Source of the DNA: a virus | IMG/VR virus record: IMGVR_UViG_3300045988_122518 | Direction: 5' to 3' (one strand) | DNA length: 64,000 nucleotides | Shown: positions 23,682 to 26,646 of the stretch, in pieces | Position numbering within the stretch: the first letter of the stretch is position 1 | Layout of the letters: each line of letters opens with the position of its first letter | The notes under the pieces: generated by a model | What the model was told of the DNA's origin: nothing | The model's input: the letters and a program-made list of their open reading frames with translations, nothing else | Database searches by the model: none | Translations under genes and position numbers: made by a program

Positions 23682-23734
23682 AAAAAAAAATAAGGGAATG
23701 AAACAAAAATAGTTTCATTCCCTTATTTTTTTTA
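23682..23734. terminator. bidirectional rho-independent terminator (A-run, AAGGGAATGAAAC / GTTTCATTCCCTT, T-run) separating convergent early (+) and late (-) transcription
   Basis: 13-bp perfect stem flanked by A9 and T8 tracts. Confidence 0.6.
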
Positions 23735-24035
23735 TCTATTTAAATAAAAGATTAGTATTATTTATAATTTCTTCACCATAAGTTCCCACTAAATCCGCAA
23801 TCAATTCTTCTTCTTCTGGTTTTAATGAAATATCATAGCTAAAAATAGCAGCATGAGTTAATTCATGTACTAATACTTTTTTTAATTTTTTATTGCTAAT
23901 ATTTTCATTAATATAAATTGTTGAAGTAGGATCATCACAAGAACCTAAAGTATATATTCCAGAAGGTCGCATCAACATAGGATGATTGGAAGATACTAAT
24001 AGTATCCTCCAATTCCTATTATTAATATTAACCAT
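23724..24035 (-). CDS. small HExxH motif protein (putative zinc metallopeptidase-like), one in-frame TAG at 23736
   Basis: VLVHELTHAAIF motif; ATG 24035 overlaps the stop of the upstream gene (ATGGTTAA coupling). Confidence 0.45.
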
Positions 24036-24573
24036 TCATAGATCCAATTTTAGATGCTAAAGCCTAGATTTTCTTCTCCATATAAGAACGTTCATCATTA
24101 GAAGCATCTTCAATCATTTCTACTATATCAGAACTTAATTCTTGAAGATACTTGTCTAACTCTTTTATCTAAACACTCTTATCTTTATGAAGTTCTTTGG
24201 CTTCTATATACATCTTTCTGTGGACGCCACTACGGCCTTCTCTGCTATCATGGGTTTCATGAGATTTCCCACTTGTTGGCATCTCATATTCGTGCTCATC
24301 ATAATCATAATCTTCCCAATCATAGTCATATGTCATAGGTTTATAGATTCTTTTTTTATGAGGAGATTTATATTTTTCAGTATAATAATGTGTGGTTTCA
24401 GGTAAATCATTCATAGCTTCAGTAATAGTGCAATAATAAATAGCCTCTTCAAGGTCTTTTATCATATCTATTACTTCGCCCATTTCCTTTGTATCAACAC
24501 ATTCTAAATGAGCCATTTGGCCTTCTACTTGAGTTAATAATTGTTTTTTAATTTCTTGGAATTTATCACACAT
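24028..24573 (-). CDS. hypothetical acidic protein (about 181 aa; in-frame TAG at 24169 and 24064)
   Basis: RBS AAGGAGG then ATG 24573; contains a YDYDWEDYDYDEHEYE tract; frame traced codon by codon to TAA 24028-24030. Confidence 0.45.
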
Positions 24574-24586
24574 TTAAAAAACCTCC

Positions 24587-25009
24587 TTATGCCACTCTCT
24601 CGATAATTAAGCTGGCGTTTTCAACATCAATAGCCTATGAACTCGTGTTTTCAATACTGATTTGAGTGCAACAACCGCCTAACACATCGAGGAATAAAGC
24701 ACGTGAAACATTATTAAACTATCCAGTAGCCGTAGGAGTGGAAATCATTGTAGAAGTAGTAACTGGCTCTCCATTAATAGCTATAGCCAAAGAAATAGCA
24801 CCCGCAGTTCCAGTAGTTGGAAGTCCTATATTACCTCCAAATGAAATGCGGAAACGAGCTCTGCGTTGACCGTTCGTAAGACCGCGGAGGGTAACTAAAC
24901 CGCTACCCTCGCGATACATTATGGAACAGTTTCCAGCAACAGCTGTGTTAGTGAATACTACATTAGAACCAGTAGCAACTGATTGTAAAGCATTAGCCGT
25001 TATTTCCAT
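24587..25009 (-). CDS. BclA C-terminal-domain-like (C1q/TNF-like) protein, about 140 aa, in-frame TAG at 24719 and 24635
   Basis: The C-terminus ...ASLIIERVA closely matches the Bacillus BclA C-terminal domain terminus ...SASIIIEKVA. Gly/Thr/Ala-rich beta-like segments run through the protein. RBS GAAAGAAGG. Confidence 0.5.
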
Positions 25010-25030
25010 AATTTAACCTTCTTTCTTCAA

Positions 25031-25912
25031 TCAGGAATTACAACCGCATCCTGAGCCATAACCGCATCCATAACTGGTATAGCTAACACCAGTATAAGGA
25101 TTAGCAACGATATAAGCAGGAGTTGCTTTTGGAGACAACTGATCAATAAGATAAGCATTTTGAAGATTTTGAGAAATCTAATTTTTAAGAGTGCTATTTT
25201 CACTGGTAAGAGTCTCAATTTTATCTTGAACAAGGAAGTCAAGAATAGAGCGCATATTGGCATTATTGTTGTCAATAATATCGCGGACACCATCAACGGT
25301 AGCCTGACGATTCTGGCAAGCAATACTAGCAAGATTGTAATTAAGATCCGCGAAACTAGACTGAATTAACTGTTTATTCTCGCAGCAGCATTGAGCGTTA
25401 GTAGCTGCCATATTACTTAATTGCTGAGTTAAATTATTAGTATTTTGCATACTTGCTACAGTATCAGCATTAATAGCCTGAGTAATACTAAAGGTATTCT
25501 GCATATTGTTCATACCCATATTACAGATATCACTCTGTAAAGTGCGAGTATTAGCATTATTAGTTTCAGCAAGATTAGCAAAACCACTTAAAAGATTAGT
25601 GTTTACTCCACTAAAACCATTACAAAGGCTAGAAGCTAAACCATTAACGCCAGATTTAAGATCGCTCATGTTAAAACCATAACCGATTTCTTCTCGAGTT
25701 GTAGTGCCTTGGAAACCAGAACCATTAGCACCATTATTACCCCAGCCATTACCGCCCCAGCCATTGAAGCAGAATAAGAACAGGATAATAATCCACCATG
25801 CTCCGTCTCCCCACATTCCGCCATCATTATTACGATAGCCATTTCCAGAAGCCGCAGCAATATCAGATAATGAATAATTCGGCGTGCTCATTGGATAATT
25901 GTAATTAAACAT
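25031..25912 (-). CDS. Gly/Trp/Asn-rich membrane protein with Cys/Gly/Tyr-rich C-terminus (hypothetical), about 293 aa, in-frame TAG at 25178
   Basis: TM segment WWIIILFLFCF followed by GWGGNGWGNNGANGSG; the C-terminus YTSYGCGYGSGCGCNS follows the TAG; ends at TGA 25031-25033. Confidence 0.45.
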
Positions 25913-25938
25913 AACAAAACCTCTTTCTATAATTTTAT

Positions 25939-26187
25939 TTATTTAAACCCCATTTGGGACTTAAAACTATTAAATTCTTTATCGAAATTCAAACCTCTTG
26001 ATTCAAACAAATTACGAGCAAATTTTTCAATGTCATCGGATTGACCGTTCCGTGCCATTTGTAATAAATTATTGCCCATTGGCGTTCCGCCCATTTGATT
26101 TTCAAGCATAGATAAAACTAATTGCTATGGATTTTGACCGTTTTTAATCATAGCAATAATTTGCATTGGATTCATTGATTGTGTCAT
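25939..26187 (-). CDS. small hypothetical protein (82 aa, one in-frame TAG)
   Basis: RBS TAAGGAGAG then ATG 26187; frame counted to TAA at 25939-25941. Confidence 0.35.
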
Positions 26188-26199
26188 TTGAAACTCTCC

Positions 26200-26646
26200 T
26201 TAAAAATTAAACTGCGGTTTGCTCTCTACTGGTTGCTATTGAGCTGGCTAATCTGCTCCTTGAGATGGCGCAACCGCGTTATTGGATCCCATGATCTATG
26301 CAAAAACTTCTTTAATAGAAGTTAAGGTAGTATTAAATTCCTCTCGTGTTATATAATCATTATTAGGCTAAGAAGAATTCGGGATTTCCTTTAATTCATA
26401 CATATTAATAGAAGCTGTTCCATCCATATTTATTTGTTTTGTATAAATTCTACGATTAGCATAGTCAGGAAAATAAAAAACTGAACCATCAAAATCTATA
26501 TTCATAGCTCGAACCTCTTCTAAAGAAGCAACAGGTCTAATTCGCTATGCAGTATTGTTTTGAATCACAGGTGTAGCAGTTGTTCCATAAATAGGTCTAT
26601 TATTACCTATTGGATACTACTGCTATGGATAACCATAAGTATTCAT
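26200..26646 (-). CDS. hypothetical protein (148 aa) with multiple in-frame TAG including a Q-Q-Q triplet, two of which are TAG
   Basis: RBS GGAGGT then ATG 26646; frame open to TAA 26200-26202; the length is divisible by 3. Confidence 0.4.

Follow-up and report, generated by a model that had tools for sequence, protein, structure and literature searches.

In a 64,000-nucleotide stretch of the virus record IMGVR_UViG_3300045988_122518 (called the window below), a cassette of six small genes, g1 to g6, lies on the minus strand between 23.7 and 26.7 kb and is intact only when the codon TAG is read as glutamine. By comparison with related loci, the cassette is a portable late-operon module, most often but not always linked to lysis genes. 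Its core is formed by two adjacent genes, one for a membrane-anchored helical protein (g3) and the other for a protein predicted to be a C1q/BclA-like jelly roll (g4). The folds of g4 and g6 are known individually, but no described system corresponds to the cassette as a whole, and its function is unproven. No paper describing it was found in a literature search, and its PHROG families 16490, 20016, 21718 and 1233 are all listed as "unknown function". What is such a module for? The explanation that we tentatively favour is that it is an autonomous accessory module, translated late, which builds a membrane-anchored "stalk and knob" complex of g3 and g4 at the release stage.

Six genes decoded with TAG as glutamine

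Under the standard code, the minus strand at 23.7-26.7 kb holds only gene fragments, and the internal stops in the frames of these fragments are all TAG. With TAG read as glutamine, six contiguous minus-strand genes appear:

26200-26646, minus strand: g1, 148 amino acids, with seven in-frame TAG codons
25939-26187, minus strand: g2, 82 amino acids
25031-25912, minus strand: g3, 293 amino acids
24587-25009, minus strand: g4, 140 amino acids
24028-24573, minus strand: g5, 181 amino acids
start 24035, minus strand: g6, ending at 23736 (99 amino acids, TAG as stop) or at 23715 (106 amino acids, TAG readthrough)

A reading of the window made from its letters alone (the sequence-only reading) had placed six small recoded genes here, and they are confirmed, under this decoding only. 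Each gene is preceded by a GGAGG-like ribosome-binding site or overlaps the preceding gene, the start of g6 overlapping the stop of g5 by 8 nt. In-frame TAG codons are present in g1 to g5, and probably one in g6; the "QQQ" run of g1 is written TAG-CAG-TAG.

Is TAG really decoded as glutamine? A comparison of coding density under alternative codes is not diagnostic alone, as removal of TAA inflates open reading frames (ORFs) even more in this AT-rich DNA. The assignment is made not on coding density but because the in-frame TAG codons, public gene calls and glutamine columns agree. In near-identical public contigs of 190-198 kb, the same six products are called with 147, 82, 293, 140, 181 and 85-87 amino acids. 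In homologues from standard-code genomes, the residue at TAG position 97 of g4 is glutamine in 27 of 34 sequences, that at TAG position 125 of g4 in 28 of 34, and that at TAG position 21 of g2 in 4 of 5, and all three are conserved columns. The six genes are real, and their TAG codons are decoded as glutamine.

Since the related contigs are 190-198 kb long, the phage would be a jumbo-size recoded gut phage. The genes in the plus-strand half of the window (1-23.7 kb) serve replication and nucleotide metabolism and have few TAG codons, and the minus-strand half carries very long structural ORFs rich in TAG; one of these (53441-61747), with 2,768 amino acids and thus of tape-measure size, carries 84. 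The cassette therefore does lie, as had been read from the sequence, between a late (structural, minus-strand) operon and an early (replication, plus-strand) module. A tRNA gene search of the 64-kb window found none, hence no suppressor tRNA(CUA) there; such a tRNA may be encoded elsewhere in the genome of about 198 kb. In an earlier bioRxiv study of recoded gut phages (10.1101/2021.08.26.457843), in-frame TAG codons were reportedly concentrated in late genes. The cassette has this late-gene signature of recoded (code 15) gut phages, and its in-frame TAG codons imply that its translation would be confined to the recoded late phase of infection. Note that code 15 is the decoding context of the cassette and gives no account of its function; the cassette also occurs in standard-code phages.

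The g3 and g4 proteins

The g3 protein starts with a YSLxDIAA peptide, followed by a Trp-flanked transmembrane (TM) helix (AWWIIILFLFCF), a Gly/Trp/Asn linker and two long helices; after the helices come a CCC motif, an invariant PAYxVANPY (PAYxVxNPY) and a Cys-Gly tail. The two helices cover residues 82-148 and 153-259 in an AlphaFold2 (AF2) monomer model of low confidence, with a predicted local distance difference test score (pLDDT) of 60. The invariant positions are in the two non-helical end peptides and the TM helix. A trimeric-coiled-coil model is matched weakly by 15 of 58 members of the g3 family. g3 is the only one of the six proteins with a hydrophobic segment, and no signal peptide or lipobox was found in any of them. 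It contains 1.7% Lys and 3.4% Cys, compared with 7.5% Lys and 0.5-0.9% Cys in the other large or late proteins of this phage; g3, g4 and g1 are all sharply unlike its virion proteins in composition. The g3 family is very large: g3 matches phrog_16490 (E 7e-31) and has more than 7,400 database homologues, and an exhaustive search with hidden Markov models (HMMs) gave 2,728 clusters at 50% identity; phages of Clostridia are among the carriers. Neither Pfam nor PHROGs gave a holin family match for g3. Its architecture is i-spanin-like, but the cassette contains no lipobox protein, and the cultured hosts include Firmicutes. One subfamily of g3 is poor in Cys; in its locus (L110, 563-2900, minus strand of that locus), a 436-residue radical-SAM enzyme and a 189-residue Cxxx-repeat protein with a weak PF27846 "tSAM target" match are encoded divergently, adjoining the cassette.

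For g4, an alignment of 35 sequences gave a confident model (pLDDT 84.9), which in structure comparison proved to be a ten-strand jelly-roll beta-sandwich superposable on the C-terminal domain (CTD) of BclA or on C1q heads. According to this model, g4 is a standalone C1q/TNF/BclA-CTD-like jelly roll, and because of its fold it would be expected to form a trimer. The jelly roll takes up the entire protein (140 amino acids), which lacks Lys; its two termini and a GCC motif are invariant. Structure comparison thus bears out the name "BclA-CTD-like" that the sequence-only reading had given to g4, and its other gene descriptions were accurate as well. By sequence, membership is not detected: g4 has no Pfam match at E<=1, only noise in NCBIfam, and a best PDB sequence match at E 0.87. 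In BFVD, many phage proteins of about 135-145 amino acids share the g4 fold, and 4,719 database homologues of g4 were found, with identity above 70% in more than 100 clusters. g4 can therefore be regarded as a new standalone member of the BclA-CTD/C1q class, the fold itself being already known.

Searches of Pfam, NCBIfam, PADLOC and PDB sequences with the six proteins, and with family alignments of g1, g3 and g5, gave nothing above threshold. Of the structure prediction and remote homology that had been suggested as a check, then, the former revealed the g4 jelly roll, the g3 model stayed poor, and the sequence searches stayed below threshold. The view that none of the six is a canonical virion or lysis gene holds, since no match to holin, endolysin, spanin or head-decoration proteins was found in Pfam, PHROGs or NCBIfam.

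Partner proteins

The proteins g1, g2 and g5 are of low complexity. g1 has a Tyr/Gln/Pro-rich N-terminus, a "YVTREEF" helix and an aromatic C-terminus; its conserved block of about 50 residues reads GRPVSSLEEARA..IDFDGSVFYFPDLANKRIYTKQINxDGT, and g1 matches phrog_21718 (E 4e-7). g2 is Gln/Met/Asn-rich and probably helical; it has no family match in Pfam, PHROGs or NCBIfam, and analogous ORFs of about 70-80 amino acids fill the same slot in Butyrivibrio virus Ceridwen and in locus L087. In g5, helical N- and C-terminal blocks surround an acidic Tyr/Asp(/Arg/Gly)-rich low-complexity centre with "YDYDWEDYDYDEHEYE". The family profiles of g1 and g5 had no match in Pfam or PDB, and no GXY repeats are present in any cassette protein.

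The last gene, g6, carries the motif HELTH (HExxH context VLVHELTHAAIF, preceded by TIYINEN), and HExxH is conserved in all 15 non-redundant g6 homologues. Its Pfam scores stay under the gathering thresholds for Peptidase_M78 (18.2 vs 22), SprT-like (18.0 vs 25.6) and DUF2268 (22.0 vs 23.6), and likewise for DUF6782. In PHROGs it matches phrog_1233 (E 4.5e-15) and a family named "metallo-protease". Its homologues are free-standing proteins of 100-115 amino acids, and a few carry precomputed PF06114 or PF10263. g6 is thus predicted to be a minimal HExxH zincin of known fold with proteolytic activity. It has the "...IYIN-x10-HExxH" core in common with ImmA/IrrE (Peptidase_M78) and SprT-like minimal zincins, but at about 100 amino acids it is about half the typical size of these enzymes. 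Unlike ImmA/IrrE it has no adjacent XRE-type repressor as substrate, being translationally coupled to g5 in a late operon.

Then what replaces g6 where it is missing? In the lineages without it, namely Ceridwen and a 45-kb group, a conserved protein of 125-126 amino acids with Cys and His motifs (NPNP..VGDCVVRA ... GHVVTV; phrog_3754, unknown function) is encoded directly upstream of g1 (5068-5445 in L001, the Ceridwen locus; 5250-5630 in L087, of the 45-kb group). To judge from its motifs, this papain-like protein may be an alternative protease of the module. The cassette versions of crAss-like and Bacteroides phages also include HExxH proteins, so that a small protease-like gene seems to be a constant component of the module.

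Distribution and gene order

Is the cassette peculiar to this phage? Through g3 or g4, 99 related loci were retrieved, in which gene presence was determined with iterated HMMs. Of these, 95 contain g1, 92 contain g5, 58 contain g2 and 54 contain g6. The genes keep one order throughout, g1-(g2)-g3-g4-g5-(g6): g1 is always upstream of g3, g2 stands between the two, and g5 follows directly after g4. About half of the loci are TAG-recoded, and the others use the standard code. The adjacent pair of g3 and g4 is the invariant core, also found together in Ceridwen and Dulem virus 33. Cultured carriers include Ceridwen and several C. perfringens phages. In Ceridwen a gene for a 264-residue protein, by eye like an HNH-type homing endonuclease, lies between the g4 and g5 homologues (L001, 7512-8306); therefore the module tolerates insertion of a mobile gene with its flanking parts kept.

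g3 alone can also be recognised in Bacteroides phage C3_41T2LP, in many phages of crAss-like type and in putative archaeal viruses, assigned to Methanomassiliicoccales. After g3, the crAss-like and Bacteroides phages encode small beta-rich proteins with Cys, others rich in Asp, Tyr and Arg, and others of HExxH type. For the neighbours in crAss-like, Bacteroides and C. perfringens phages, hhalign gave no support for homology to g4 or g1 (probabilities below 1%), and therefore only g3 is claimed to be common across phyla. A Cys-rich neighbour of 125 amino acids in a C. perfringens phage was considered as an Ena/DUF3992 protein and rejected, having no PDB or Pfam match.

Where in the genome does the module stand? 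It comes directly after the holin gene in this phage and its relatives, after the endolysin gene and before the lysogeny genes in Ceridwen, Dulem virus 33 and a 43-kb temperate phage, before holin and GH25 lysin genes in another phage, and about 1 kb after holin and carboxypeptidase genes in the crAss-like cr116_1. In no fewer than six lineages it borders on lysis genes (holin or endolysin), before or after them. In the 45-kb phages of Dulem virus 35 type it is far from the endolysin gene. Synteny among related phages, which the sequence-only reading had named as a check, thus shows a fixed internal order in the 99 loci and a cassette not tied to one genome position.

Transcription unit and control region

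The cassette and its surroundings contain the following features:

23685-23731, both strands: bidirectional intrinsic terminator, 20-bp stem with T-runs on each strand, common to the cassette and the convergent plus-strand replication module
26647-26889, no strand: divergent control region, 243 bp, AT-rich, between the regulator gene and g1
26665-26707, minus strand: hairpin with a perfect 16-bp stem in the g1 leader, immediately preceding the ribosome-binding site (RNA folding energy -18.3 kcal/mol, z = -4.1)
26890-27606, plus strand: receiver and LytTR-type regulator gene, 238 amino acids, one in-frame TAG, divergent from the cassette
27609-27652, both strands: bidirectional intrinsic terminator, 19-bp stem with T-runs on each strand
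27651-28061, minus strand: holin-like gene, 136 amino acids, one N-terminal TM helix, last gene of the structural/late operon

With bidirectional terminators on both flanks, the cassette is a separate transcription unit, as the sequence-only reading had held. The terminator at 27609-27652 closes both the holin-like gene and the plus-strand regulator gene and sets them apart from the cassette. The same reading had placed a promoter at about 26700-26880. A -35/-10-like site, TTTACA-17-AATAAT, is indeed found on the minus strand at 26726-26698, and diverged relatives keep the layout of holin gene, terminator, shared promoter-like motif and g1. Because of this conserved layout of terminator, motif and g1, the cassette promoter probably lies in the control region. 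The promoter itself is less secure than the layout, as this AT-rich region contains no excess of promoter-like sites (26 found vs 30 expected).

Upstream of the -10-like element of the cassette, AAAGTGTCA occurs as two exact repeats (26741-26749 and 26788-26796) 47 nt apart, the sole exact copies in the 64 kb. An Rfam scan of the region gave no family for the leader hairpin and only terminator hairpins at noise level. The repeats and the hairpin are a possible operator and attenuator.

The holin-like gene matches phrog_13712 "holin" (E 7.4e-38) and, weakly, Pfam Phage_holin_6_1. The regulator scores 33.9 bits for Response_reg in Pfam (cut-off 30.2) and 21.1 bits for LytTR, just under the cut-off of 22.6; it also matches phrog_8810, and related contigs call a protein of 238 amino acids with PF00072. 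It is a candidate regulator of the cassette, present in 18 of the 99 loci, closest relatives only. By eye, the phospho-acceptor Asp of its receiver seems replaced (…YDAIFLGITF…), which suggests that the regulator is phosphorylation-independent. On the other side of the cassette, the last gene of the convergent module (23252-23680, plus strand) encodes a protein of 142 amino acids with an N-terminal TM helix (phrog_4105/4257, unknown function), and a small TM protein like it stands before the cassette in the 45-kb group (L087, 5635-5940).

A proposed mechanism and its alternatives

How might the six proteins work together? In the stalk-and-knob explanation, g3 would insert in the cytoplasmic membrane via its single Trp-flanked helix and oligomerise, probably as a trimer, through its long Lys-poor helices. 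A g4 trimer would then dock on one end peptide of g3, either the N-terminal YSLxDIAA or the C-terminal PAYxVANPY, in a manner mirroring the clamping of BclA and F-Anchor leader peptides by ExsF/BxpB. In two papers on the Bacillus exosporium (PMC12357932; PMC10470788), ExsF/BxpB is described as a standalone C1q-like trimer that grips three extended leader peptides of a fibrous trimer in the clefts between its subunits, and BclA as being clipped before it attaches. In a similar way, g6, or the small Cys-His papain-like protein in other lineages, would process one component, and the low-complexity proteins g1, g2 and g5 would be assembly or adaptor factors. The place of action of this complex would be the cell envelope, during lysis or release; it would be neither a virion part nor an immunity system. 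The analysis shows that the genes are real and recoded, and it shows the fold of g4, the architecture and composition of g3, the conservation of the module and its surroundings in the genomes; the oligomeric state, the g3-g4 docking, the protease role, the membrane topology and the physiological role in this scheme are what we infer.

Several observations are in accordance with such a scheme. Late and independent expression is indicated by the in-frame TAG codons, the flanking terminators and the conserved terminator/promoter-motif/g1 layout. The docking idea agrees with the pattern of invariance, which in g3 falls on extended end-peptides and in g4 on both termini. The adjacency of g3 and g4 as the core, the weak coiled-coil matches in the g3 family, the apparently constant protease-like gene and the frequent closeness to lysis genes speak for the scheme as well. 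g3 spans phages of monoderm and diderm bacteria and putative archaeal viruses, with differing virion types, a breadth easier to reconcile with a target that all of them have, the cytoplasmic membrane, than with a site on a capsid or tail peculiar to one lineage. Late-only translation, a TM anchor conserved across virions and envelopes, a non-virion composition and purifying conservation together point to a cell-level membrane function at the end of infection. A more elaborate form of the scheme, which we regard as doubtful, is that a so far unrecognised multi-protein system, carried by gut viruses of different host phyla, would late in infection assemble a layer like the exosporium nap on the host membrane, or on the membrane debris and virions set free at lysis. 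In that layer, helical stalks would bear C1q/BclA-like trimers and would be matured by a dedicated mini-protease.

A number of points weigh against the stalk-and-knob explanation. The link between g3 and g4 is proposed by analogy with the exosporium. The monomer model of g3 is poor (pLDDT 60), and no fusion of stalk and knob (g3-g4) was found among the 150 best representatives of the g3 family, which all have 115-340 amino acids. Cys covariation between the CCC motif or tail of g3 and the GCC motif of g4 was looked for as a sign of a disulfide and gave no support, as g4 keeps its GCC motif also where its partner is of the Cys-poor g3 subfamily (L110). The partners g1, g2, g4, g5 and g6 lack signal peptides and so carry no export signal. 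The flanks of the g3 TM helix are nearly without positive charge, and the N-tail is net acidic; with such flanks the stalk could stand on either side of the membrane, and g4 might not reach it before lysis. Outside Firmicutes phages only g3 is detectably homologous, its neighbours being analogous in size and motifs only. In cr116_1 the module stands immediately before scaffold-like and capsid genes, and in the 45-kb phages of Dulem virus 35 type it has a MuF-like minor capsid gene on one side and the genes for scaffold and major capsid protein on the other. These head-module positions in two lineages hint at a head-related role, and sustain the fibre and ejection readings that follow.

Could the cassette build a virion fibre or decoration? 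In this case g3 would be a trimeric coiled-coil shaft with its hydrophobic N-terminus in the particle, g4 a detachable knob, and g1, g2 and g5 chaperones, on the model of reovirus sigma-1, adenovirus fibre, PRD1 P5 or phi29 head fibres. Late expression suits this idea, as do the two head-module positions, and depositors labelled crAss-like g3 homologues "spike protein/glycoprotein" or "outer capsid protein/viral fiber"; one neighbour in a Bacteroides phage weakly matches phrog_473 "virion structural protein". We nevertheless think it unlikely. The anchor is conserved among phages whose tails and capsids are unrelated, and it is a strongly hydrophobic TM helix of the classical Trp-belted kind; g4 is highly conserved and not host-variable; Lys makes up 0-1.7% of g3 and g4 vs 7.5% of this phage's own fibre and tail proteins; and in most lineages the cassette follows lysis genes with its own promoter and terminators. 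Very unlikely, in our view, is a set of capsid-packaged ejection or pilot proteins resembling T7 gp14-16, P22 E-proteins or MuF-linked "polyvalent" proteins, in which g3 would enter the recipient membrane and the g6 zincin would be an early effector. Late synthesis, the MuF adjacency in the 45-kb group and independence of the type of host envelope would fit, and proteins with long helices and a TM segment could well pass through a tail channel and then insert in a membrane. The last gene of the Bacteroides phage version was also labelled "PolyVal metallopeptidase superfamily" by its depositors, but this label is annotation only, and g6 homologues are free-standing proteins of 100-115 amino acids rather than domains of polyvalent proteins. 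Most lineages have neither a MuF fusion nor a MuF neighbour, and a compact, very stable jelly-roll trimer such as g4 would be a poor candidate for ejection.

The recurrent adjacency to holin or endolysin genes, on either side, raises a further question, whether the cassette times lysis. g3 would then be a class-III-like holin or antiholin (with a short N-terminus before its one TM helix, like T4 T), and the soluble partners would be cytoplasmic regulators like RIII. A single TM helix with a large Cys-containing C-terminal domain, a target that is the sole structure common to all hosts, and a LytTR-type regulator adjoining the cassette in this phage would all be in place for such a device. It is quite improbable all the same: Pfam, PHROGs and NCBIfam give no similarity to holin, antiholin or spanin families, a recognisable holin is already present, and no known lysis regulator has as many as five or six conserved partners, one of them a C1q-like trimer. 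This idea overlaps with the stalk-and-knob explanation, from which it differs only by a direct pore or timing role. Hardly probable at all is a superinfection-exclusion, defence or anti-defence module, the host-interaction role that the sequence-only reading had suggested. A membrane protein, small non-canonical proteins, a separate transcription unit, an ImmA/IrrE-like zincin and a moron-like position beside the integrase gene in some temperate phages could all be read that way. In this phage and dozens of relatives, however, TAG would block translation before the late recoded phase, when immunity has little value, and several lineages carry the module inside late structural operons. PADLOC gave only noise (a 13-bit AbiEi fragment for g6, E 0.015). 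The strong purifying conservation of the proteins and the fixed gene order across very different, unrelated phages also argue against a defence role, because genes in an arms race usually diversify.

Comparison with known systems

The closest mechanistic precedent for the cassette is found in the Bacillus exosporium, in the CTD of BclA/F-BclA and in ExsF (BxpB/ExsFA) (PDB 9h38, 1wck, 7r1m). At the sequence level the cassette does not belong there, having no match to Pfam BclA_C or to the NCBIfam exosporium leader (TIGR03720). The BclA nap protein is a collagen-like GXY stalk fused to a C1q-like domain, whereas g4 has no stalk of its own and the putative stalk of the cassette is alpha-helical and membrane-anchored. 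Further, the cassette is phage-borne and late-lytic, occurs also in phages of non-sporulating hosts (Bacteroides), and has no ExsY/CotY lattice partner.

In viral fibre and knob proteins (reovirus sigma-1, adenovirus fibre, PRD1 P5 and the knobs of phage receptor-binding proteins), shaft and knob may be compared with those of the cassette, but here each has its own gene, the anchor resembles a true TM helix, the knob is conserved and not host-variable, and the composition is unlike that of the phage's own fibres. The T4 holin T with RI/RIII and the i-spanin Rz resemble g3 in an N-terminal TM helix, a long helical domain and conserved cysteines, and share with the cassette late expression and adjacency to holin or endolysin genes. 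They differ in having no homology to g3; the cassette has no lipoprotein o-spanin partner, its hosts are mostly monoderm, and the g3 family is much larger, with five fixed partners.

Other genes of the window

On the early/replication strand, 9168-10007 (plus strand) encodes a protein of 279 amino acids. Its N-terminus has a hydrophobic, signal-like segment, and its motif "...GILGNMMAECGG...GICQWS..." resembles phage lysozyme or tail-lysozyme domains. PHROGs gave it only a match of unknown function. It could be a secreted endolysin, a candidacy considered because no endolysin gene adjoins the holin gene. The segment 40459-41997 (minus strand) is coding, with two tail-fibre-like ORFs that have non-ATG starts, one of them continuous with an ORF of 248 amino acids at 39652-40398.

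Implications

A fixed module of five to six genes is common to thousands of otherwise unrelated gut phages. Such conservation means that it almost certainly serves some general step in the life of these phages in the gut, one beyond the current models of holin, endolysin, spanin, virion and defence. An exosporium/C1q-type fold is now found beside a very large unannotated family of membrane proteins. ExsF-like docking of a peptide gives a concrete structural hypothesis, and the TAG codons are a built-in marker of expression timing. With cultured Butyrivibrio, C. perfringens and Bacteroides phages (Ceridwen, C3_41T2LP), the module is genetically testable, and assignment of its function would annotate PHROG families 16490, 20016, 21718 and 1233 together. 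That function could reveal how gut phages are released, survive or disperse. If the idea of a nap-like layer is true, the cassette would represent a new class of phage apparatus for the release stage or for particle protection, adapted to the intestine.

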